Positions 10,340-64,000 of a stretch of 64,000 nt of DNA are shown one piece after another. A program made the translations under genes and the position numbers. The notes beneath the pieces were generated by a model. It did no database searches. It had not been told where the DNA came from and was given only the letters and a program-made list of their open reading frames with translations. This DNA comes from Yuukianura sp. NJ FZ-2021. Lineage: Eukaryota. The stretch is from the NCBI GenBank assembly GCA_046563655.1, contig CM102285.1, positions 6,944,001 through 7,008,000 of the forward strand, written 5' to 3'. Numbering within the stretch: position 1 is the first letter of the stretch; each line of letters begins with the position of its first letter.

Positions 10340-13300
10340 ATGTCGAGTCACGAGGGAGGATTCCATCAGGTAATGTAGAGAGAATTCGGGTGTTGCGCTT
10401 TACGTATATACTAATAAAGATAAATTCCTTAGATTTACTTAGTTTTACACTAATTTACTACTTGAGAAAGAATGTTTTGTTAATTTTTTTTCTGATTCAC
10501 TTCGAAACAATTTTTTCGAGTGGCCTGATATCGAATAACCCAAAACATGACCCAAAAAAAAACTCAAAAAATGACAAAAGTTGTACAGGTCAATGGGTGA
10601 ATCTTTTTTTTGTATTATTTATTATACTTCTACTAACCAATCAATTCAAGTTCAACTCATTGAGCTCAATTTATAAAGGTAATTTTTAGAGTTGTCACGC
10701 GTCGCTCGAAAAAATTTTCATAAAGGTAATAATCACACTCCAAAACCTAGTCTGCAACCGGTTGGTTTCCGCTTTAATTAATTGTAACCTACATCTTATT
10801 TTATTTAGGGTCATGCAAAGGGAGATGGTACTGGAGTAGGTATGCCACATTTAAATTCACTTTTTTTCTGTCTATTTGCTATTTGAATTTGCTTGCGAAA
10901 GCTACTATTGCAGTCATTCTTGAAAGTGATCATAATGTTAGTATAATGTTAGTTATAATGTTAGTACAAAGTACTTTTGTTAAAAATTAAAAAATAACTG
11001 TAATAATATTTTTTTTGTCCTTTTCATGATCTATCAGGTTTCACACGTTTTAAAAGGTAAACAAGAATAATTTTTTGCCCAATTTTCTAAATTAGTATCA
11101 TACCGGCTACTCTTCTGCAGCACTCTATTACGTTGCGTTTAGGTATAACTATCTAAAACGTGCAAAAACTATTTCATCTACCCCATTTGGCGTTTCTTAT
11201 TTTTGTTTGAGTTTCCTCATCTATTCTGTCAATACCTTAAATACGATTGTTCGTTGTAAACTAACAGTTGGAGGCGGTCGCGGCCCTACTACAGCGACCC
11301 CCGCACCGTATAAGTTGCCCATACGCGTTACAAAAAAAGTTTTGGAAGAAGCTCCTCTCCAATGGCAACAGATCGACGTTCTAGACTCTAAAAATCAACC
11401 TGTTCCACCGCCGAGCAAGGGCCCAGGAGTGCAGAGTCAACGGCTTATTCGAATCACACTGAACAGTCTATTTACCATGCCAGTTGGTACTAACAGATCG
11501 TATCATCCAATACGAAATCCACATTGACTTGTCACCGGAAGATAAGGCGGACAAGGTAAATCGCCAAAAGAAACAGGCACCAGGGTCAAAGGGACGTGGC
11601 AGTGGCAGTTCCTCGCGTGGGGCTCCGCGAGGAACTGGCGACAGAAATCCATTGCCTCCGAATCTGTGGAAAAGGATTGTCAGAGTTCTAATTCCAATTC
11701 TGGAGCAAAGCAATGGAGGAATACCTTTACCAACGGATTACATGAAGAGTATTTTTACTGCGTTCCAACTGGCGTTACAAGATGAGTACAGAATTCCGTT
11801 GTCAGCTGTTGAAGATGAAGGGAATAGCACTGCTGTATACGTTTGCAAAATCAATGAAGTCGGGTCGGTCAACACCGGAGTACTCCAACAATGCATCCCA
11901 GACATGTACGCATACATTACTCGGGACAGGAGGCCTGTTCCAGAACAGCTTACCCTTGTGGAACAAGCCCTCAACATTGCACTGAAGACAAGACTTCAAA
12001 TGCAATACACTCCTGTGGGACGTTTTTCGTTTTACAACACAAACCAACATGCTTTACGAAAATCAGAGTAACCTTGGTGCTGGACTGGCCATCTGGAAGG
12101 GGTTTTCTACCGTGTTAACGATGGGGTGGAAAGTGTTCGTAAACGTCGACATTGCAAACACAGCCTTTGTGAAAGGACAAGGCGTCTACGATGCTTTGAC
12201 ACAAGTTGCGAACTACTCCAAGTCCAAAGTTGAAGCAAATCCAACGGACGCCTCCAGCTATTCGAAAGGCACAAATAAAGCAGATGCATTAAAACTCCTG
12301 AAGGGTGTCATGGTTGAATATCAGACGTCGAAAAATACAAAGTTGACTGGTAGAGTGACTGACATTCTGCCAACGCCGCCGCGAGAAAATAGATTTTCTT
12401 GTAGCAATGGAAAGGAAACGAATGTTGAGCAGTACTTTAAAACTGCCTACAAGATCAAGTTACGACACCGCAACGGCTTATGCTTACAGATACGTGGACG
12501 CAGCGTCGTTCCAGCAGAGGTAAGTCCTCCTACTTTTTACCTTGGCCAAATTTTTCTTACAACACAATAATGAATGTTTTTCTGAAAATCTGTTTCCAGT
12601 TGTGCATCATTCGGAAGGGACAAGCCTTTAATGGAAAATTGAGCGATGCTCAAACTACCAAAATTACTAAGCACACCGCAGTTGCTCCCGCCGTGAGACT
12701 CGAGACGATCCAGCGCAACGTAGAAGAAATTAAGTTCGATGAGGATCGTATTTTGAAATCTATGGGATTGACTGTTGGAAACGAACTGCATAAAATGGAA
12801 GCTCGGGTTCTGCCTCCTCCGACCCTTGTTTATCTTTCCAAGGTACAAGTCCCATTTTAAAGATAATTACAACTTGTTTGGAGTTATTAGGCTTATTTTT
12901 GATTGGTTTTCTTCCAGAACGTGCAACAATGGGTCACTCCGTCAAATGATGGGGTCTGGAATATGTTCGAACGTAGAGGCGGTGTGCCTAAACTACAGTT
13001 TATTGTTCCAGCTACAACCAAGCCTCCAGCAGCGCAAGGGTTGAAATGGGGTGTAATCAATGCTGCTTGGGAAACGGGAGTTAGCGGAGATGCTTTATTG
13101 TAAAATACAATCCTTCCTCTATTATCCAAACCTACGAGTAAAAAATATACGTAGTTACTTCCCAACCCCCTGCGTTCAGTCCCGTTAGCAACCAATGCAG
13201 TTTTTGTTTGTGACGTCACTAGTTGAAAAAATACCGGCATTCGGGGAATAATGATGGTATCCCATAGAAACCCAAACCCCGTTTGTTGTTTAGATAAGCG

Positions 13301-15682
13301 CCTCGGATTTTTATCTGACGATTACGGTATTTTTCAACGAGTGACGTCGTAAAAAAATGTCGTGGTAACCTAACAAAGTTTCTGTTCGCACTACCTAGTT
13401 ATTCTTATATTTACCTTGGTTACTTCCATTCTTAATTTTTAGTGCCTTTGTGAACCGATTGTGCAACATGGCTTTACATGCTGGGCTTCAATTGGGGAGC
13501 GCGGAGGATGTCATGGATAATTATTTGACCGTAAGAACATGTCATAGTAAAATAGCAATTTAAAGTAATACTAACAGTAAATTCAATTAATAATTCCCTT
13601 ATTCTAGATCAACGAACCAGCCGACGTTGGAAATGCGTTATAAGAGTTCGCAAAGAGTGGGCTGCACATGACCTTAGTAATCGTGCCTGAAAAAAAACAA
13701 GGTCATGTACGGAACTATCAAGACAGAAGCGGAAATTAAACTGCCTGGAAACGTGGGAAACCATTAAGGCATGTAATGGAAGCCGGATAGTGGAAACTGT
13801 GAATTCAATGTTGTTGTTTGTATTCGGCTTTTCTCCAGGGTATCCTCACCCAGGTTGTACTTGGCGAAACTGTGGAGAAAGTGGTTGACTGCAGAGATGA
13901 TGCAACAGTTCGTAACATACTGTACAAGATCAACTCGAAGTTGGGTGGCACCAACTACTACATGCACTCCAATTACAACAATGGCCAAGGACAACAGTCG
14001 ATTTGGACGAGAATTGACCTTCTCAGGGCCCCTGGTAGGATATTACTCCAATTGGTGTATCAGGAGCAGTTATTCTAATTCATTTATGTGTTATAATTTC
14101 AGTTTTGATAATTGGAGCGGACGTAACACATCCTGGATTTGACTCGAAGGTAGTGTTTAATTTTTATTCGCCTATGAGCGAGTGTAACCTCTATTCGCAC
14201 TTTTTGTTTTCTCAGCCGGAAACCGTTTTTTAAATATATAATTCCGACGAATGCTGACATCTGAATAGGGTTTTGATTCAACTTTGCGTGCTAAGTAACA
14301 TGTGATGTTAATATTTACTGGTTGTGCTAATTATGAAAATGAACACGTGCTTGAATTATTTGTTTTAGTTTCCGAGTTTTCCTGCTGTGACGGCCAGTGT
14401 TGATCGAACTGGAATGCCATTTCAAATGCATATTCAAGCTCAAGCGAAGGCAGGGAAAGGTGCGGCTGAAGTTATTACGGGATTGGCCCAAATTGTGAAA
14501 AACTTCATTATGAATTTCGTTTCGGCAACGAAACATAAGCCTCGCAAGATTATATACTATGTAAGATATCTAAAATATAAAAGTTACATAATGTTGCTTT
14601 ATTAGTTAGTATACAGAATTTGTTCGAAAGCGCAATCAGTAAACTGTTTTTGAATCTTTTTTTATAGCGTGATGGGGTTGGCGATGGCCAGTTTGGCGAG
14701 GTATGTAAAATATTATGCTCATATACAACTCTTAAAATGCGATATTCCAGCCGAATCGCTCCAAATTACAATTTACACAGAATCCGGAATACAGAAATCT
14801 AGATTCCTGGATTTTGAAAAGTATAAACACGAATTATGGTTGAATAGGTTCTGCAAGTCGAAATGATGGCTATCAGAGAAGGATGTCGGCTCGTTGAACA
14901 ATTTCAATCATTTTTTCAGCGATGTGAGCACGACTGCAGAGCTGGCGAAGTGAATTTGGGCGGACGAGCATATGAGCCTAAAATTACGTTCATCGTCGTG
15001 CAGAAGCGGCACAAAGTTCGTTTTTTCCCGGATGATCCAAACGAGGGCGTTGAAATGGTAACTCTAAATTGTACTGCGTGTTTACGCTTTTTACTTTTCC
15101 ATATCGTCATAATAATTTTGTTCTTTCAGATGCAAAATGCTCCACCTGGAACAATTGTCGACAAGGACATTGTCAAAGCTACGATCAGTGACTTTTATTT
15201 GCTTTCGCACACTGGGATTCGGGTGAGTTACACAATTTCACAATCGTTCTCTAAAAATGCATTTCCAGCTACAAAAAATTGTGAGTTACACCTATCAAAA
15301 AATTTGTCCATTTTTTTAGGGAACCAGCCGACCTACGCGCTACCAAGTTTTGTGGGATGATTCGGATTTTTCGCCAGATCAATTGCATTTGTTGACTTAC
15401 TACTTGTGTTACATGTACTGTCGCTGTACGAGATCCGTTTCTTACCCCGCAGCAACATATTACGCACATTTGGGAGCATTACGAGCCAAAAGTTATGCTG
15501 AGACGTTGGAGTACGTTCACTTCGGTCAAATCTTTATTTTGTTGAGATATCGATGCATAATTCAGAATAATTTTTATATTAGTTCCAGCGGTGAAGTCGA
15601 TATATCAGACGTCGCGGAGGTGACCCAACGTATCCAACGTAACCCGCGTTTCCAACGATTCTTCAAAATGCACTTCGTGTGA
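10340..15682 (+). pseudogene. Argonaute (AGO clade, Ago2-like), multi-exon, apparently disabled
   Basis: Domain motifs in order: L1 (GRFSFY...LGAGLAIWKGF), PAZ (VEQYFKTAYKIKLRH...VPAELC), MID (YGTIK, GILTQVV, NILYKINSKLGGTN) and PIWI ([44 protein letters not shown]-terminal MHFV*). Canonical GT-AG introns. Disablements: +1 frameshifts near 11465 and 12030-12065, in-frame TAA at 13641-13643, and an extra A in the run at 13690-13697. Confidence 0.85.
13170..13390. mobile_element. Small inverted-repeat (MITE-like) insertion in an Argonaute intron
   Basis: TGACGTCACTAGTTGAAAAAATACCG (13211-13236) versus CGGTATTTTTCAACGAGTGACGTC (13325-13348). Outer boundaries are approximate. Confidence 0.45.
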
Positions 15683-33827: not shown

Positions 33828-36800
33828 GTTTAGTTTAGTTTAGTTTATTCTGAAGGCACTCTGTGTAAACAGGCAATTACACCTCAGTCAATTACATCAG
33901 GCGAGTTTTAAATAAAAATTAAAGTTAAAATTAAAATTAAAAGGATTTACTAGCAGCAATGTAAGTGCCATTCCTTGTGGACATAGTGTTGCTCAGTCAC
34001 GCAAGTACTTCTGAGATAAGCGGTTGAAAATACGGAATGTTGTATCCAAAAATTTTAGAGAAAGTTAGAAGGTGTTCTAATTTGTTGAGTTGGGACGGAA
34101 TTAGCCACTTTAGATCCTCAGTAATCTTCACGCTTACGGGTTCCCTTTTATTTATTTGAAAAATAAAGCGTGCGCATCTTCTGTGAAGGGCGTCGATGCA
34201 TCTAAATTGTGATGACTTACAATTTGACCAAATGATGAGCATGTAGTGAAGAACTGGAGTTACGTAAGAACTGATCATCCCTTTCCTATGTTTTTGATTC
34301 AAAAGATGCTGAATTGGGTATAATGACCACAGTACACTATTGCACTTTGTTACCAGAGTGACGATATGTTCACACCAGGATAACGTGTTGTCTATTGTTA
34401 GGCCAAGGGACTCTAAAGAGGTTACACTTTCGATGATTGAGTCACGGATTCTGAGATGTATGGATCCAATTTTCTTAATTATTGTTTCTTTACCAGCCAG
34501 CATTATTTTAGTTTTTTCCATGTTGATGGCCACGTGGTTGCAATGCATCCAATCGTCGATTTGATAAATTAGACTTTCAGCTCGTTGTATTAAGAAGCTA
34601 ATTTTGTCAGGATGATCACCCATCACAATGTTGTTATCGTCGGCGTATTGGATTGCTGAGCCGTCAACCAGAGAGTCCATTAAGTTGTTCTTCATAATTG
34701 CGAAAAGGAGTGGGCCAAGCACTGAACCTTGGGGAACAGACAGAATCGCTTGTGATGTAGATGAATATTGATCATTAATTTTTACACTTTGCGCCCGGTT
34801 GCATAGGTAGGATTCAAACCATTATGTGTTAATGTTGTACCATTTCAAATTGTCAGTTAAAATTCCTTTGTCCACTGTATTGAACGCTTTTTTTAGGTCC
34901 AGGGAGATCACCAAACACACCTCACCCCGATGCACATGTGAGTAGATTAATTGTGTGAGCGGAAGCTGAGCCATTGTGGTAGAGTAATGTTCCCGGAATC
35001 CGAATTGTGCGCGGTGTAGGATAGAGTTAGTAAGACAACTTATTTAGGAATTCAGTTAGTTGTACGTGAGCAAATTTTTCCATCAGTTTTGCTAATGTAG
35101 GTTGAAGGGAAATTGGACGAGTTTCTGACGGATGGGCTGAGACTTTTGGTTGTGGTATAACAATTGAGTGTTTTGGGTTACACGGGAATACACCAGAAGA
35201 GAAGCTGTCGTTGATTATCTTCATTACTTGATTCCTAATGGAAGGAGCACCGACACTGTGGGCTAGGATCCAATTGGAAATTCCAAATTGGTCTTTACTT
35301 TTTGAATATATGTTTTTGACCCATTTCCAGATTTTTGAAAATGTGAACGCATCGATTGGTTTTAAGTTGAACTGCTCAGACGGCGTAATGGTGGATGTTG
35401 GCTGTCGTTGATACCGAGTAGAAACAGTTTGAGGTGTCGTAATCGACGTGTAGTAGTCGTTGATTTGATCCAAATTAAGAGCGAGTTGTCCAATCATGGA
35501 TTTTTCTTTCGGCTTAATTTTCTGAATTGCTTTAAATGGACCTAGTTTCCCGATATCAAGATTTAAAGCGTTTCTTTTCGGGTTACTGCAGTTTTGATTT
35601 TCTTTTTAAGAAAATGCAATTGGTTCTTCTGTACATCGGATTTGGGATTGCTTTTTAGAAGTTGATCACGGGTTGTAATTAACTTTTTCGTTTCATCTAC
35701 TTATATAAAATCGAGACCCTGTTTATCTGTGTGTGTGTGTGTGTGTGTGTGTCTGTCCGGCTACTCCTCCGAAACTACTGAACCGATTTATACAAATGAG
35801 GTGTCATTCTCTTCGGGAGATCATCCCGAAGACCGTAGGCTATGTCACATCTTGACCTGTGACCTTTGACCTTTGACCCAGCGCAAGGACCTCATAAAAT
35901 CATACCAAACACAGGCAAGTGACATATCATTCGAAAGCAGAGGTCAAATGCAGTCGAATGATGTATAACAGATTGACCTGTGACCTTTGACCCTTGACCT
36001 AGCGCGGTGACCTTACAAAAAATCAAACCAAAAATAGGCATGTGATATATCATTCGAAAGGGGAAGTCCAATGGAGTCGATTTACGCATGACACGATGAC
36101 CTGTGACCTTTGACCCTTGACCAATCGCTGTGACCTCACATCTACTTATATAAAATCGAGACGCTGTTTATCTGTGCGTGTGTGGCTACTCCTCCGAAAC
36201 TACTAAACCGATTTGGACAAATGAGGTGTCATTTTTTTCGTAAGATCACCCCGAAGATCATAGGCTATGTGACATCCTGACCTGTGACCTTTAACGCTTG
36301 ACCTAGCGCATACTAATCATTACAAAATCATACTAATCACAACCTTCCCAGTGACATGCCATTCAAAAGCAGACGTCAAATGGAGTCGATTGAAGTATAA
36401 CACATTGACCTGTGACCTTTGACCCTTGACCCAGAGCGGTGACCTCATATAGAATTAAGCTGAATATAGGCATGTGATACGTTGTTCGAAAGGGGAGGTT
36501 CAAAGTCAGATGCAGTCGATTCATATATCACATTGACCTGTGACCTTTGATTTATGGCGGGGATCCTATAAGAAGTACACACAAACGTAGGCCTATGATA
36601 TATCATTCGAAAGAGGCGGTCAAACGGACTCGGTTTACATATGTCGCGTTAATTCTGTGACCTTTGGCACCAAAAAAAATTAAGTTCCACACTACATGTC
36701 TCTCTTCTACATGTTAAACATAAATTGGATTGACGGGTAGTTTTAAGGGATTTCCGCATGGGCAAAAGGTAGGGTATGATATTTTCATAAAAATAGTCCA

Positions 36801-38120
36801 AGCGGGTCAGAATGTATCTCAAATGGGTAGCGGGTTTCCAAAAGTGATACGTTTATCTATGTATGTTCGTATACACTACCACAAAAGCTAGCCCCGCTTT
36901 CACAAGCGGGTATCATACCTTGTCAGATATAGTGAGTACTGCGCTGCGAGGGAAGACGGAAAGCGTACTCACTTATACTGTTTCATCAAAGTTTCCAATC
37001 AGTTTTTTCATAAGTGTGAATACTTGTGAGTCTAGATTGCCATGTTCATCACTGAGTGAGGTAAAAATGTTTTTGAGACAAAATTCCTCATAATCGAAAT
37101 TTTTGTAATCGATGTATTTTACTTTCACTTTCGCCAGCTTCGGCTTTAATAGGTTCACTGATATTTGTACTGAGGCATGATCAGAAACTCCAGGACCAGA
37201 AATGGATAAGTTAGTGACAGCATCAGGAATACTTGTGAAAATTAGATCAAGTATGGAGTTGCCACGAATAGGTTCAGTCACTAGTTGATTGTAAATTTTT
37301 AAGATTAGGTTGAACTGTTTGCGGCAGTTGGATGGGATGTATGAAGAGTTTAAGTTAAAGTCACCAAGAACAAACCATTGTTTTTTTGGAGAGAGTTAAT
37401 ACCCCGAGCAACTCGGAAATAGAGTTCAAATCGTTGGTTATTAAGTCCGCACTGTAGTTGGGGATCCTGCAGGCACTACACACAATCACTGACTTGTTGT
37501 GGTCCATTTGTATAAACTGCAATTATCAATTCCAAGTTGCGGTTTGGTGTAGTGTTTAGTTCGTTTTGCTTGAATCGTAAAATCGATCTAATTATCATAC
37601 CTACGCCACCTTTGGCTTGCCAGTCACGCTCACGATCTAGATGGATGAATTTGTAGCCTTCTATGCTTCTGGGTGGATGATTAATGTTTAAGTGGGTTTC
37701 TGAAATGCAGAGGACGTCAGTATTGTACAAGTCCAAAAAACTTTTATTATGTCACACTTAGAGTTAAAACTGCAAACATTTAAAGCTGCAATTTTTAGTT
37801 GCTTGCGAGAAGATTTTGAATTGTAATTATTAGTGGCGCTAATTAGTCAATTTTGATTCTGATTCGGGTTACGGGTCATCGTAGCATAGGTTGGGTTGGG
37901 TGGTGAGCGACTGGTTAAATTGCTTCGGTTGAACACACTTTGCGTCATGGAGGGTGCATTGCTCTCACATGGTGATTGTGCAAGTAGAATTTTTTGGGCA
38001 AAAGAAATTAGGTGCCTGTTTTTCCGTACCGCGTTAGTTGAATTCAAAATTTTATTCTCTAAGCAAATTTTTTTTACTTTCTCCGGCACATCCGTCGATT
38101 TCGAGTCTAAAAATGCCAAT
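33828..38120 (-). mobile_element. Decayed APE-RT non-LTR retrotransposon (CR1/L2-like LINE)
   Basis: APE motifs LKIAALNV, LCISETHL, VLGDFN, LDLIF, SDH; RT motifs RPISL, VPQGSVLGPLLF, YADD (34636-34647), LGLTIDNTLSW; 3' tail AATAAAC(TAAAC)3. Multiple stops and frameshifts; the 5' boundary is uncertain. Confidence 0.85.
35696..36922 (+). mobile_element. Non-autonomous Helitron inserted in the LINE
   Basis: A|TCTACTTATATAAAA 5' end, (GT)n, internal repeats of about 120 bp (TGACCTGTGACCTTTGACC), 3' hairpin CCCGCTTTCACAAGCGGG, then CTTG|T. Removal restores the LINE reading LTISDETKKLITTRDQLL. Confidence 0.85.
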
Positions 38121-56700: not shown

Positions 56701-59339
56701 CAAACGTTAACAATCCTTTCAGGAACAATCCTTCCAAACTTGAAAAAGTGTTAGACTTTGAACAAATTTTAAAACTGGAGGAACAAAGAATAAAAATTGC
56801 AAAAGAAGTCAGGCATAATAAGCCTAAAAGAAACGATTCTTAAGGCTGGCGAATACCTTGGAAACTGGGGGGTCCATATGCGGTTGTAACTCATGAAATG
56901 AAAAACGGTCTGGGTCAGCGTAGGAATGTCGTACAGTGACCCACAATATATCCAACTTTAGGAAAAGACTTGATCTAGTACCCCGCTGAGAAAAAATTAC
57001 AAAATTTTAGTTCTAACTGTGAAAAAAATTGACCCATACATTCCTCCTCCATATTTACATATGGAGACCTACGCTGACCCAGATCATTTTTCAATTTCAA
57101 TGTCGCAGCCTCAGAAAAATTGTTGACAAACCCAGACGACGGCAACCGAACTTGCGTCAGTATTTTCTTTGTTTGAAAGTGCATACTTTTTTTGATCATA
57201 TTTGCACTGATCCTTTTTCACCACTCACAAGGGTGTCTCTTTTTGTCGATGTCTGCATCTTTTACTAACTGCACAAGCACGGTTATCGTGGTTACTAAAT
57301 TTAACAATTATTGTTTATTAGACGCATACCACACGTCCTTAAACACAAAGTAAGACCGGTTTTCTCTTCCACATTCAAATTGGATTTGTTTGTTGAATCG
57401 GATTGTTTGTCACCAGGTCAGCAGCTAGTAACACAAACCGGTTGCAGGTTCGCATACTGGCTCTCGATTTATAAGCATTACACGTACGAACCGACTGGCA
57501 AAATCCTTATATGTACTGACGACACTTCACAAACCGTTGTTTGATTATATTTTTGACAGGAATTTAGTTAACTTTTTCTGTTTCTGTTGTGGTAAGAGCT
57601 TTCTAATTGTTTTTTATCTTTAGCAATATTTGGGAATGTTTTGTTTTGTTTCCGCTGTCCTTTCTTTTTCATAAAAAGAAAAACCGTGTAAAGAAAAGAA
57701 TTAGGAGCCAGTAGAAGAAGTGCCTCTAAGATCTTGTTGATTACAGATTTCAGTTGTTGATAGCAACAATTAATTTTTTGCGCATACATTGATTACGCTT
57801 CGCACGTGTTATGAAGCGTTATACCGTAAACATTGAAAATTTTAAAGCACCAGCATTAGGACCTTAGGACGTTTTTTTGTTCAATGGCGAAAAAAGAAAG
57901 AAATGAAACGAGATTTACATTAATTTAAATTTCAATTCCATGCGTCCGCCCAAAACTACGTTCCCCAAGTTTTATACATCTAACTAAATCGAAGAAAATC
58001 TGATTGAAGTAGGAACAGGCTAAAAATCGCACCTTGAATTTATTTCCTATTCAAAGTTGCACGTTTAAATATATTTCAACATTGTTCGCGTTACAAGTCG
58101 TACGTAGAATTTATTTTACGATAAAAATCGCACGTTTTACGTATTTTGCGTTAAAACTCGTGTGTTTAACACATTTTGCATTAAATCCAGATCGTGGAAA
58201 AATCGCATGCTGAATTAGGACCGGGTAAAAAATTGCACGCTGAAATTCGATGGCATGGCAAATGTCACGATGAAGTGAAAATTAAATACAGAAGACGATG
58301 GCTGTTGAAAAAGTCTAGGCATTGCTAGGATTTGCATGTAGCGTATGCTGGTCTCTCATTTCAGATGCTTGATGCTTTAGACTTTTCGGATCGAAATTGT
58401 GAAAAGTGACCGAGACAGGTAATATTTCCATTTGCGATGTCCCGATGAATTGCTGTCGATCCCGCCTTTTCCTTATCGTAAGATGCATCTGAATCGCTGT
58501 TTTGGGACAAAAGATTCGCGATGCGGGCTACTCTTGGGCGATGCATTAAACTTGAAATATTTGCAGATAATTCCACCGTTTTCAGTTTCATTTGTAACGG
58601 AAATACGCAGATCATAAATTTTGGTTAAGAAACATAAGCACAACTCCGTTTTTAGGCAACGGTGGTCCTCGTAAATAATACAGGCAGTTGAAAGTAGTTT
58701 TTCGCGGTAAATGGAGGTAAAAGCAGCTGAAAGATACGCTTAGAAAGCAAATGCATATTATTAGTTATATTTGGTAAAGGCAATGAATCGCGATGTATTG
58801 CGCAGGCGATTCAAGGAGGTGCCAGAATCGCCGAATCGCAGGGCTTCTCTAATTCCCATTACGGAAAACTTACCAATTTGCAAAATTCCAAACCGTTGCG
58901 AATGTATGGCACATTCCGGAGCATGTAAAACTGCAAAGCCACCTAGCAAGCAAAGGGTTCGCTCTCATTTCAGCATTTTGACGTGAAACGTTTTAAATAT
59001 ATCTATCAGGTTTACAAATACGGCGCATGTGGAATGCTTGCATACGGCGTTCAAATTTTAACAGTATTTCTCACGTAATCTTTATCACGGGCTACGAGTT
59101 TTAAGTGTCGGTGGATGAATAAAATGTTTCTGCCACTCTACTCGAAAGTGGTGGATATACCGGGTTTTATTGGTTTCTTCCAGATGAAACAACCTAATTT
59201 CGTCCACAGGAAACTGGATTTTATCCGGATTTATTGATACTATATCACATGGATATGTCCCGGATGGACTGCTGAAACAGTGGATATGCAGCAACACTGT
59301 TCTTAACTTCTTACTTGAACTTGACTTGAAATATGTTAA

Positions 59340-59850
59340 ACGTGGGATTTTTCACGTGACCCTAATTCGACGTGCGATTTTTCACGCGATTTTAATTCAC
59401 CACACGATTTTTCACGCGACTTTAATTCAACGTGCGATTCTTCACGCGATGTTGTTACAACATGCGATTCTTCACACCAACTTAATTCAATATGCGATTT
59501 TCACGCGATTTTAATTCACCACACGATTTTTCACGCGATTTTAATTCAACGTGCGATTTTTCACGCGATGTTGTTACAACATGCGATTCTACACACCAAC
59601 TTAATTCAATATGCGATTTTCACGCGATTTTAATTCACCACACGATTTTTCACGCGATTTTAATTCAACGTGCGATTTTTCACGCGATGTTGTTACAACA
59701 TGCGATTCTTCACACCAACTTAATTCAATATGCGATTTTCACGCGATTTTAATTCACCACACGATTTTTCATGCGATTTTAATTCAACGCGCGATTTTTC
59801 CTGAAGTCATAATCCTATGTGCGATTTTTTGCGCGATTTTGTGCGATTTC
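59340..59850. repeat. Minisatellite of about 20-bp monomers with a 119-bp higher-order unit
   Basis: CACGCGATTTT-type monomers; the landmark CCAACTTAATTCAATATGCG recurs at 59477, 59596 and 59715. Confidence 0.85.
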
Positions 59851-61683
59851 GCTAGAAGAAATTTACTGGGAGAGCGTAGTTTCGGGCGGACGCTTTTAAT
59901 TAAAATTAAAATTTGATAAAAATTGGCTTGGTAACGCGATTTTCTAAAAATCAAAATTTTCTAGAGGCACTTCTTTGACTGGCCCCTTCAATTCAGACGT
60001 GTGGAGAATTGTAAATTTAAAACTCGTGTGTCAATGTTCACGGAAGTGGAAAGCGTAGAAATGTAGAAACAAGATTTCTCCCGTTTTACCTGGGATTTTA
60101 CAATTTCAACCAAAAAGAATCACAGGTTGATCTCTGCGTAATCTTATTGTGAGAAGATGAGAAATGACTAGTACTACTGCAAAACTTTCTTTGAAGGAAA
60201 TGGAAACTACGTGTCTCTTATGCTAAATTTCCAACAGGAGTTCCAAAATCCAAAAGAACTTCCCATGCTGTTCTAAAAGTAAAAGTACCAATTTTGTTTA
60301 AAAATGAAGAAAGCCTTCTCCTGGGATTTACGTTCGGTTAGATTTAACTTTGTATTCTACGCGTCGTCTTGTTTACTCCTTTCTCCGCGCGCAAGAAGTG
60401 AAAGCGATAAGTGCAAAGTTTTAGTATATTGAAAATCAACTAAAATGGAAAAATACATCAGGACCACGGAAAGCCAACTTTACATTTCATTATCCTAAAA
60501 AGTATAAAAAAGTATAAATGAAATTTGATTCTTTTTAATTTTGAACTGTACTATCAGTTAAATATAACTATACATATTTGACATCACATTGACTTTCAGA
60601 ATTGGGCAGTTGTATTCTTCGACGCTATGGTTGGGAAGTTGTTTGTCTGGAAAATAAAATTGCAAAAACTGAAAAAAAAAAACCGTCGTGTTTCGTCTTT
60701 CGTGTCGTGGCATGCGTATTACGTCATGTTCTAGGTCACGTAAATTGATCTGCGCAATGCGTACTGCAATGAAACACGACTGCCCAGGAAGATGGGCCCA
60801 ATTCCGTGACTCAGAGAATAATTTATAAGTCATAATCTTGCTCCACTTTTACTTTGACTTGGAACGACCAAAAGGAAAGTGTGAATTTAATGTCAGTTAT
60901 CAATACTACCACAAATGCCTTTCTCCACGTTACAATCCTCATAAAATGTGGAAAGAAAAAGAAAGAAAAATGGACCATAAAATTCTTACTGCCGCCTGCT
61001 AAGGCGAAAGTGAATGTTTACTATACAAAAAAAAATCCAAATCCAACTATTCCTAAAGATAGTTTGAGATCTAAAGCTCGTTTCAAAATGCATGCGTTGA
61101 TTTTTGCACGAATGACTGTCTATTGTGTACTCAATATATACTTTTAGTTCAAGAATTAGAGTTCAGCGTTTGAATCCAAACACAATGGCAGGACGAGATT
61201 GCCGCAGCTATGTTAGGTTTAAAAAATTTTGGGTTTTAAATTCTGAAGATGTGATTTGAAAATAGTCATTAGGTTAGACTTTTAGATGGTGAAACAATAA
61301 AAGTTTAGGAAAAATGAAGTTTGAGGAAAAAAAAAAAGTTCAACACGCAAAAATCGCTCCGACTTTTCCGACTTTTTATCGAGGAATTGTTCACTTTTTT
61401 GGATTTTTGCTGACATCAAGTTGTTCATTGTGTTGTTGCGAATCTGTGGAAGTGACTTTCGGTCTTGTCAACCTCCCAGTGCCCGCCAAGTGGCCCAATT
61501 TCGTCATCAAAAACTACCACAAGAAGGTGTTTTCAACTCGTCACGGGAGGCGCCACATGAAAACAAACATTGCCACCTTCAAGTTTTGTTTCCAAGCCAA
61601 CCAATCGGAATATTTCTTTTTCTCACCTCAATCCAGTTGGAATTAAAAATCTTCAAATTCTCCTCCTTGACGACCACTTCAAA

Positions 61684-64000
61684 ATGAAAAACTTCGACAC
61701 TTCAGAACCAAACAACAGCGGAAGTCTTCAATTAAATTCAAAAAACAAGTGGAATTTCGACGCTTCTTCGTGCCAATCTGGACTTCTTCCCGACCATGAA
61801 GTTCTCAGAATCGGATCGTCAACCAACGATTGCGGATTGAGAACTAGCGGTGATGCAACTGAACCTTCAGAATTATCTACGTCATCTCAAGAAGCTTCGA
61901 CGTCTACCACATCGTCCTCCAACGTCACAGAGAAGCCGACAAACAACATCAAGCTCACTGAAGCATGGATTCTATCTAACATTACCTCATCTTCTGGGTC
62001 CACTATTACGAAATTCGACGTCAAATCAAGATACCACGAATACTGTGTTTCAGTCAAAGTTCGTCCCGTCGTCGATGCTACATTGGGCAACAAGTTACTC
62101 AAGCTTTTTCCTGACATGACCATCACTCGAGCCGGCGGGCGTAGACACGCTGACCGTTCCTACTGTGGAATCACCTGGTTAAACTCTCCACCAAATTCAT
62201 CAAAAACTTCAAACCATTCTCACAAGGACGACCTTGGACTGTTGCTGGCCAAACTGAAGACATCAATTCCCACCCTCAAACATGTTCCAAAGGGAGCCAG
62301 ACGTTCAACGGCGGAATGCCTTTCCAATTTGATCAATGATGTCACCTCATCTAACTCCAAGGAATCCTGGTCAAACCTTTTATTATTTCCTTTCTTCATC
62401 CTATCTTCACCTAAGAAGTCTGACAACGTTTCCAATCTAACAACATGGGTGAAGTCCAAGATTTCTAACTTATCATCATCATTACCTTTAAACCTGCACT
62501 CATCTTCAATCTCCAACTCCGTTTTCCACTCCAGTCAGAGAAAACCTTCAGACTTTAAATTGTCTTCTCGGATTCTCTCCAAGCTTGCTGATGGCGACAT
62601 CCACGGAGCGGTTCGTCTACTCTGCTGCGACGACACTTTGGCTACCGAAGATAGTGCCACACTTGACGCCCTACAGCTTCTACATCCAAAACACCCCGAA
62701 CCGTGTCAACTTCCTGTTCAAACACTGCCAAACGAAATCCATTTTGAAGATCAACAAATAACAAAGTCAATCCTTTCATTCCGGAATGGTTCTTCGGGAG
62801 GCCTAGATTCTTTGCGACCACAAATTCTCAAGGAGCTAATCTCAAAATCAACGGGAGATGCAGGCATCAACCTCATATCTTCAATTACGAAGTTAGCCAA
62901 TCTCGTTGTCAATGGTTCTCTTCCTAATCAAATTCGTCCACTCTTTTTCGGAGCCTCGCTCGTTGCCATTGAGAAGAAAACTGGAGGCATCCGTCCGATT
63001 GCCATTGGTTTGGTTTGGCGACGCCTAGTCTCGAAACTCGTCCTGTCCGAAATGATGAAGAATCTTACCAACTACCTGAGTCCTACACAAGTTGGCGTTG
63101 GCGTGAAGAACGGAGCAGAAGCAGTCGCCCATGCTGCTAGAATCTACGTAAATACTCCTCATCCATCCCCTAAGGTGCTGCTCAAGATGGACTTCCGCAA
63201 CGCATTTAATCTTATTCGAAGAGACAAAATGCTGCAATCAGTAAAGGATAGCTTCCCTGAGTTCTACAACTTCGTATCTCAATCCTACTCAACGGATTCC
63301 GACTTGTTCTATGGATCCTGCCGATTAAAGTCCAGCCTAGGTGTGCAACAGGGGGATCCCCTTGGCCCAGCCCTCTTTGCCCTGACAGTCCATCCCATGG
63401 CTTCTTCTATCAAGTCCGAATTCAATGTCTGGTATCTCGACGATGCTACTATTGGAGACTCTCCTGATGCCGTCTTATCTGAACTGAAGCGAATTGATGA
63501 AGATGCTGCTAATTTTGGCCTACAGCTGAACTTCAAGAAGTGTGAAATTATTGTCGTCAGCGCAAGTCCATCTGAAAGTTGCTCCATTGTGAATTCTTTT
63601 CGTGCGTTTGCTGCCGACATTGGTGTCGTTAACGAAGAAACCGCCGAACTCCTTGGTGCACCTCTAACCACTGCTTCCTGTCGTCGTATAATCAAAAAGA
63701 AAACAGAAGATTTCAGTCGCCTCTCTGCAAGGCTCTCTTTACTACCTGCCCACGCCGCTCTATTCCTCCTAAGAGCTTCTATTTCTACCCCGAGGCTGAT
63801 TTACTTCCTACGTTGCTTCCCATCGTTCCTGGAAATCGATCTTCTGACAACCTACGACAATTGTCTTCGTCAAGTCCTAGTGAACATCATGAACATCAAC
63901 TTATCAGAATCCTCTTGGCAACAATCTTCTCTTGCTGTCTCCGAAGGAGGTCTGGGAATCCGTCATGCAGTTGATTGTGCTACTGTTTCGTTTTTGGCCT
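61684..64000 (+). mobile_element. CRE-like non-LTR retrotransposon ORF (RFX-like winged helix + reverse transcriptase), running off the window end
   Basis: Stop-free frame from ATG 61684 (preceding stop at 61558-61560) for 772 codons. Motifs: TLKHVPKGAR, KLADGDIHGAVRLL, LQLLHP, GSSGGLDSLRPQIL, FFGASLVAIEKKTGGIRPIAIG, QVGVG, DFRNAFN, GVQQGDPLGPALF, WYLDD (63430-63444), GLQLNFKKCE, LLGAP, GGLGIR. Confidence 0.9.

Follow-up and report, generated by a model that had tools for sequence, protein, structure and literature searches.

R2 retrotransposons, represented by R2Bm, R2Tg and the other R2 proteins of solved structure, are encoded by one open reading frame (ORF) in which an N-terminal DNA-binding module is followed by a reverse transcriptase (RT), a CCHC linker and a PD-(D/E)xK endonuclease. 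The same plan is found in a family of elements one copy of which lies at the end of a 64,000-nucleotide stretch of Yuukianura sp. NJ FZ-2021 (assembly GCA_046563655.1, contig CM102285.1, positions 6,944,001 to 7,008,000 of the forward strand), referred to below as the window. Both presumably work by target-primed reverse transcription, in which the protein attaches to its target DNA, a nick is made there by the C-terminal endonuclease, and the RT, starting from the nick, copies the element RNA. The two differ in their heads and in their surroundings. R2 carries zinc fingers and a Myb domain at the head and inserts into 28S rDNA, whereas the window copy carries an RFX winged helix instead and has no 28S rDNA context. 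In this lineage an RFX winged helix has been captured as the head of an endonuclease-type long interspersed nuclear element (LINE).

The HERO, NeSL/Utopia and CRE clades also resemble the window family in overall architecture. According to the available text of the Utopia paper, the N-terminal additions in these clades vary: zinc fingers, between one and three; a Ulp1 protease, found in NeSL and one Utopia element; and an RNase H, found in oomycete Utopia. The words RFX and PHD occur 0 times each in that text (PMC4640811). The word RFX likewise occurs 0 times in the accessible portions of two 2026 reviews of R2, and no description of an RFX domain in a retrotransposon was found in the literature searches, to which any claim of novelty is confined. 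An RFX-headed retrotransposon has apparently not yet been described in print. The cellular RFX factors (RFX1-8 and those of fungi) have the DNA-binding fold in common with the element, and RFX5 is the nearest solved sequence. A preprint reports that these factors keep their DNA-contacting residues almost unchanged (bioRxiv 10.1101/2022.11.11.515474). Unlike them, the element has neither the RFX dimerisation domain nor any other RFX-factor domain, and its winged helix is fused to an RT.

The open frame and its RFX-type head

The element occupies a single frame on the + strand, 61684-63999, that is open for 772 codons from the first ATG (61684) and still open at the window end. The stop-to-stop frame opens at 61561 and contains no stop through the last window base. 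The frame covers the 5′ two thirds of the element's only ORF, and the following parts are distinguished:

61561..61683, + strand: in-frame stop-free stretch before the first ATG, taken as the 5′ untranslated region (UTR) from a frame scan
61684..63999, + strand: single retrotransposon ORF, cut by the window end; relatives have about 300 further codons (CCHC and endonuclease)
61684..61956, + strand: Ser/Thr-rich leader, residues 1-91, defined by composition; no Pfam match
61957..62175, + strand: RFX-type winged-helix DNA-binding domain, residues 92-164, defined by Pfam, a sequence match in the Protein Data Bank (PDB) and the modelled fold
62272..62301, + strand: TLKHVPKGAR, first of the conserved motifs in the core common to the family, from an alignment of relatives
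62968..63570, + strand: RVT_1 reverse transcriptase domain, residues 429-629 (Pfam, E 3.7e-19)
63433-63444, + strand: catalytic YLDD, residues 584-587, within RVT_1
63571..63999, + strand: post-RT region, cut by the window end, which the family profile aligns with the R2 stretch between RT and endonuclease
63946-63963, + strand: GGLGIR motif in the post-RT region

An uninterrupted frame running off the window, with a Ser-rich leader, an RFX segment and then an RT with YLDD, had been described in an initial annotation made from the sequence. The 772 open codons agree with that description, Pfam and composition return the parts in the same order, and the translation of 61960-62178 is identical, letter for letter, to the peptide quoted there. 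Ser and Thr make up 32% of the leader (residues 1-91), against 20% over the whole frame. In 6 of 11 RFX-bearing relatives (P0004, P0005, P0012, P0057, P0060 and P0089) the position of the leader is occupied by a PHD finger. No PHD finger is encoded in the presumed 5′ UTR or further upstream, as judged by tblastn of the PHD-bearing N-termini of five relatives against 58000-64000 (best E 0.6).

Residues 92-164 match the Pfam profile PF02257 (RFX_DNA_binding) over positions 4-76 of its 79 at E 5e-9, and the score of 37.1 bits exceeds the curated cut-off, which is 27. The isolated 73-residue segment matches the same profile at E 2e-10 and 41.6 bits. Beyond RFX and RVT_1, a Pfam search of the 772 residues to E 10 gives only a chance-level RdRP_1 match (E 0.1); no zinc finger or Myb domain is found in them, and, with no Pox_D5 match, the D5-primase-type winged helix that had been offered as an alternative identity is not supported. 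Compared with sequences in the PDB, the segment matches human RFX5 (8zjr_M) at E 6.3e-6 and RFX1 (1dp7_P) at E 0.024.

The predicted fold gives the same result. An AlphaFold2 model of residues 85-340, built on a 14-row alignment of relatives (A2), has a mean predicted local distance difference test score (pLDDT) of 78, with values of 84-95 over model residues 1-60. The elements follow in the order H-E-H-H-E-E (helix 2-15, strand 16-25, helices 26-40 and 47-57, strands 62-65 and 74-81). A Foldseek search of the PDB ranks RFX5 (8zjr_M) first, with E 1.2e-4, a template modelling (TM) score of 0.92 on the target and a root-mean-square deviation (rmsd) of 1.5 Å over 83 columns, and X-box-bound RFX1 (1dp7_P) second (E 5.1e-4, TM 0.88, rmsd 1.6 Å). 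The remaining matches have E values of 9.4e-3 or worse and TM scores of 0.27 or less. Profile, sequence and fold agree in identifying the N-terminal module as a genuine RFX-type winged helix, as had been proposed at the outset. In the wing, 6 of 15 aligned positions are identical to RFX5, and R-x-G-G-R and Y-x-G are kept; some relatives, L007 for one, have a wing closer to the canonical RFX wing than that of the window copy. As to the donor of the domain, a profile search among longer proteins, limited by shared words, identified no donor; it returned 13 matches in all, namely four transposon-type fragments and nine fungus-type RFX proteins, four of the latter carrying fungal names.

Inheritance and exchange of the N-terminal module

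A word-indexed search with the window protein returns 81 relatives. The best is a metagenome protein, P0003, with 52% identity to the window protein, and the best named relative is a predicted protein of Folsomia candida, P0005, with 45%. PF02257 is already precomputed in seven of the 81. A Pfam scan of the 105 relatives in which 60 residues or more precede the conserved core places RFX in 11 at E <=0.001, at the same place as in the window (9 of them above the cut-off), while a purpose-built RFX profile made from seven RFX segments matches 13 of 222 stored relatives. A weak fourteenth match, P0088, has a shortened wing. A scan of metagenomes with a single-protein query gave no relative; with alignment A1 as query it gave 76 loci, 16 of which have the RFX domain directly ahead of the core. 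The RFX segments of the relatives are 19-47% identical to that of the window and the whole proteins 38-54%.

Proteins of Folsomia candida are among the RFX-bearing relatives. They are predictions automatically named R2DM or R1 Pol polyprotein, in which RFX appears only as a precomputed Pfam tag. P0005 has the order PHD, RFX, RT, CCHC and endonuclease and differs from the window copy, which is without PHD. Annotated RFX domains in small arthropods and soil metagenomes may belong to transposons and not to transcription factors. The nearest relative of the window copy, P0003/L001 (support 100 in FastTree and 97 in IQ-TREE), has RFX without a PHD finger, and at L001:80-1225 a peptide of 14 residues is repeated in tandem about 20 times ahead of the RFX domain. 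At L002:1070-1384 a PHD finger lies upstream in another reading frame, which marks a frameshift, and the RFX wing is shortened. Related loci thus show the marks of transposon copies at several stages of decay.

The distribution of the RFX head follows the RT phylogeny. A FastTree analysis includes 135 proteins that cover the core start through the end of the RT region; 88 of the 223 core-profile matches fall short of this coverage and are omitted, among them the truncated RFX-bearing P0015, P0057, P0059 and P0060. All 10 RFX rows, the window included, fall into one 19-row group with a support of 99, and none of 500 label shuffles reaches clustering as tight. A quick IQ-TREE analysis of 38 rows under LG+C20 with posterior mean site frequencies (PMSF) recovers the same 19-row group with a Shimodaira-Hasegawa-like approximate likelihood ratio (SH-aLRT) support of 99. 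Within a single group of the RT tree the RFX module is handed down by descent.

Inheritance is combined with replacement. Within the 19-row group, 11 rows have RFX (counting P0088), four have C2H2 zinc fingers and four are too short to score. The fingers of P0014, P0085, P0009 and P0013 lie exactly at the RFX position, inside the RFX group, and C2H2 fingers are found at the same place in a sister group with an N-terminal OTU protease (P0016, P0017 and P0019). The tree needs at least three changes of state between RFX and zinc fingers, and well-supported branches force two of them. In relatives, the N-terminal modules, which vary from member to member (RFX, zinc fingers, OTU and others), stop about 20-35 residues before the equivalent of the TLKHVPKGAR motif. 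RFX and zinc-finger modules are interchanged at a fixed point immediately ahead of the core, and the head of the protein is a modular slot whose junction does not move. Across the 105 scanned relatives, the N-termini carry PHD in 18, weak C2H2-type matches in 7, OTU in 3 and SAP in 1, and UCH proteases (4) and ankyrin repeats (2) occur at the far end or in the post-RT region. Deubiquitinase domains are accordingly found in two settings in the same family, as an OTU head (P0016, P0017 and P0019) and as a UCH tail (P0106, P0114, P0142 and P0146); the ankyrin repeats of P0048 and P0050 lie behind the RT.

R2-type retrotransposons are under development as gene-insertion tools, and in the accessible text of the reviews their reach is said to be set largely by the N-terminal DNA-binding module. 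A head of another DNA-binding class, together with zinc-finger sisters, shows that the junction tolerates module exchange. The RFX-headed elements and their zinc-finger sisters also constitute matched natural pairs for testing how the head sets the choice of target.

Element type, copies and clade

The retrotransposon family is very large. A HMMER search over cluster representatives gives 16,932 clusters at E <=0.001 and 1,488 at <=1e-30. Full-length relatives have 988-1183 residues, and after the RT they show a CCHC motif followed by RH..N, KRPDG..WDF and K..KY; the CCHC and endonuclease motifs are present in P0003, P0004, P0005 and P0012. For P0005 alone the best solved RT is that of R2, a distant similarity (E 1.7e-6) confined to the RT. 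When 20 relatives are combined in a profile (A4), R2 proteins are matched at E 5.7e-18 by a single alignment, over profile positions 375-976, that runs from the RT via the CCHC region into the endonuclease. Because the relatives end in CCHC and endonuclease and the profile matches R2 from RT to endonuclease, the element is classified from its sequence as a non-LTR (long terminal repeat) retrotransposon of the restriction-like-endonuclease (RLE) type, the endonuclease of the window copy being predicted from the relatives. The earlier placement among RLE-type elements is borne out by these C-terminal motifs and by the colinearity with R2.

Placement within the RLE-type elements is less firm. The initial annotation called the element CRE-like, and apart from that impression nothing favours the CRE clade in the narrow sense, a rather unlikely assignment to which a HERO or NeSL-related lineage is the alternative. 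Classic CRE members insert into spliced-leader RNA genes, and an Rfam search finds no such gene in the window. For any choice among CRE, HERO and NeSL, R2 is the only solved relative in the comparison (E 5.7e-18). A HERO-like identity is suggested by the size of the family (the 16,932 clusters given above), by the window being without an RNA-gene target, by a leech protein among the matches (P0081) and by an (ACAT)n microsatellite that starts about 65 bases past the stop codon in relative L012. According to the available text of the Utopia paper, HERO elements mostly insert without specificity, and some families, from a leech, are specific for microsatellites (PMC4640811). These hints are circumstantial and favour HERO at least as much as CRE. 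Relative L012 is itself without RFX; the long (ACAT)n microsatellite after its stop codon (L012:3299-3616) suggests microsatellite-targeted insertion in that branch.

Contigs of four public sequencing runs were compared with 59001-64000 at 85% likeness; three of the runs come from one sample of one organism and the fourth from another study. Two low-depth contigs span the head, 61265-62319 (X1, depth 21, two differences) and 61265-62334 (X2, depth 44-48, no differences). In X1 a single contig of depth 21 is the only one on 61673-62173, and the summed depth is 642 in the bin 62174-62340 and 857-1704 over 62341-64000; contig depth is no copy number, and this evidence is weak. The core (62341-64000) is covered in the four runs by many short contigs, 85-99% alike and of high summed depth, those listed being about 5-8% divergent. 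This suggests that the core is repeated in the source organism. The change in depth coincides with the module junction found in the phylogeny, and the pattern fits either an exchange of modules or an RFX sub-lineage of low copy number next to a sister that is abundant. Recent activity, which had been read from the intact frame, is partly supported, by a frame open as far as it can be read and by the high depth of the core, and is weakly disfavoured by a leader and RFX part that occur only in low-depth contigs.

Two further readings have a low probability. According to one, a retrotransposon core has been joined by chance to a host RFX exon at this locus alone. The depth profile lends it some colour, with 61673-62173 present only at low contig depth, the downstream core at high depth and the change close to the junction between N-terminal module and core. 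Such a one-off chimera is nevertheless extremely improbable: the RFX-to-core order recurs in Folsomia candida proteins and in contigs of several metagenome records, with homology on both sides, and the nearest relative, P0003/L001, has RFX as well. A host-exon junction is ruled out by the recurrence of this order in relatives from other sources, and the initial expectation that the RFX domain is no isolated junction holds, other family members carrying RFX at the same place ahead of the core. According to the other, the locus is a domesticated, retrotransposon-derived host gene, for example a transcription factor with an RT-like tail. A frame open for 772 codons and an N-terminal part that looks single-copy in the run contigs would suit such a gene, but domestication is very unlikely given that the core is repeated in the runs of the organism in copies diverged by a few percent, that relatives retain the catalytic YLDD and a full endonuclease, that several related loci are decayed by stops and frameshifts as transposon copies are, and that the neighbourhood is repeat-rich.

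Target choice and neighbouring features

The best explanation, and a probable one, is an RLE-type LINE of the R2/NeSL/HERO/CRE assemblage in which a sub-lineage uses an RFX winged helix as its N-terminal DNA-binding module. A number of observations weigh against it. The CCHC and endonuclease third, the 3′ UTR and the 3′ junction of the window copy fall beyond base 64000. Of 15 aligned positions in the wing, 9 differ from RFX5, and where RFX5 and RFX1 have S-K-Y the window copy has A-D-R; judging from these residues the DNA preference of so diverged a wing need not equal that of the RFX factors. In related loci, 3 of the 15 RFX segments that were read through contain in-frame stops. The contig comparison suggests that the leader and RFX part are not shared by other copies at >=85%, and most copies may lack this N-terminus or carry another. 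The 64-kb window, which holds only the 5′ side of the insertion, has no Rfam family at gathering score, including rRNA, 28S rDNA and spliced-leader RNA genes, and no tRNA, and thus no RNA target gene. The window has 72 X-box matches (fixed gap, at most two mismatches), where 57.2 +/- 8.0 would be expected, and as many as 72 are seen in 5 of 100 shuffles; with a count at chance level, the earlier idea that the domain steers insertion to X-box-like sites is not supported. The nearest X-box-like match, GTTTCCAAGCCAAC at 61588-61601, has two mismatches and is of a kind found at chance frequency in the window.

This sequence, a near-palindrome, stands 83 bases ahead of the ATG within the presumed 5′ UTR. 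On the 3′ side, no shared tail or flank was found among the related RFX-bearing loci. In one record, three contigs stop 76-83 bases past the stop codon and may mark the end of the element.

The RFX domain would be what anchors the protein to its target DNA. Because no RFX dimerisation domain is present, binding would most likely be as a monomer, to a short half-site-like sequence, and recognition of so short a site would give an insertion preference and not strict site specificity. Members with a PHD finger may add a chromatin-reading step. A tentative extension of this scheme is that in one young group of endonuclease-type LINEs the target-binding head has been repeatedly exchanged at the fixed junction, between C2H2 fingers and RFX, with or without PHD or SAP, and that RFX redirects insertion to RFX-half-site-like DNA. 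If true, the family would represent a natural experiment in retargeting an R2-like machine by a swap of DNA-binding domains, and no mobile element before it would have employed an RFX domain.

It is also conceivable, if doubtful, that the RFX domain does not choose the insertion site and that this choice is left to the endonuclease, the linker and the RNA. The domain could then serve as a chromatin tether together with PHD, could bind the DNA or RNA of the element itself (promoter regulation or cis binding) or could recruit a host factor. PHD stands beside RFX in 6 of 11 RFX-bearing relatives and occurs in 18 of 105 overall; SAP, OTU, UCH and ankyrin modules are found in the family as well, so that accessory modules in general seem to dock at the N-terminus. 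The diverged wing points the same way, as does the two-mismatch X-box-like palindrome in the presumed 5′ UTR, although it is expected by chance. A role outside targeting is harder to reconcile with the alternation of RFX and C2H2 fingers in the same tree group, with a fold that is a DNA-binding winged helix, and with the function of the C2H2 fingers, which the accessible text of the reviews gives as known target-binding parts of R2-type proteins.

Other features of the window and the family stand apart from the RFX head. A tandem array at 59339-59800 has a period of 30 nested in a period of 119 (3.6 copies, 97% matches) and sits in a stretch that the run contigs cover at high depth and where joints and loose ends are numerous. 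Another retrotransposon fragment, unrelated to the RFX element, lies at 33997-37395 on the - strand, with RVT_1 at 33997-34821 (E 9.7e-11) and more open stretches upstream; over 156 aligned columns its identity to the RFX element is only 24%. An Argonaute/Piwi-family gene has exons at 11463-15360 on the + strand, with ArgoL1 and PAZ at 11986-12570 and Piwi at 14848-15360, and the only relative found in a search with an Argonaute exon is one metagenome protein of 60% identity. Matches to the family include annotated Asteraceae proteins (P0071, P0078, P0079, P0080, P0082 and P0083, from Smallanthus, Helianthus, Mikania, Artemisia and Tanacetum), and a long branch of the FastTree phylogeny bears P0069, P0071 and P0080, which are tightly grouped. 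RLE-type LINEs in the genomes of the daisy family could reflect horizontal transfer or contamination.

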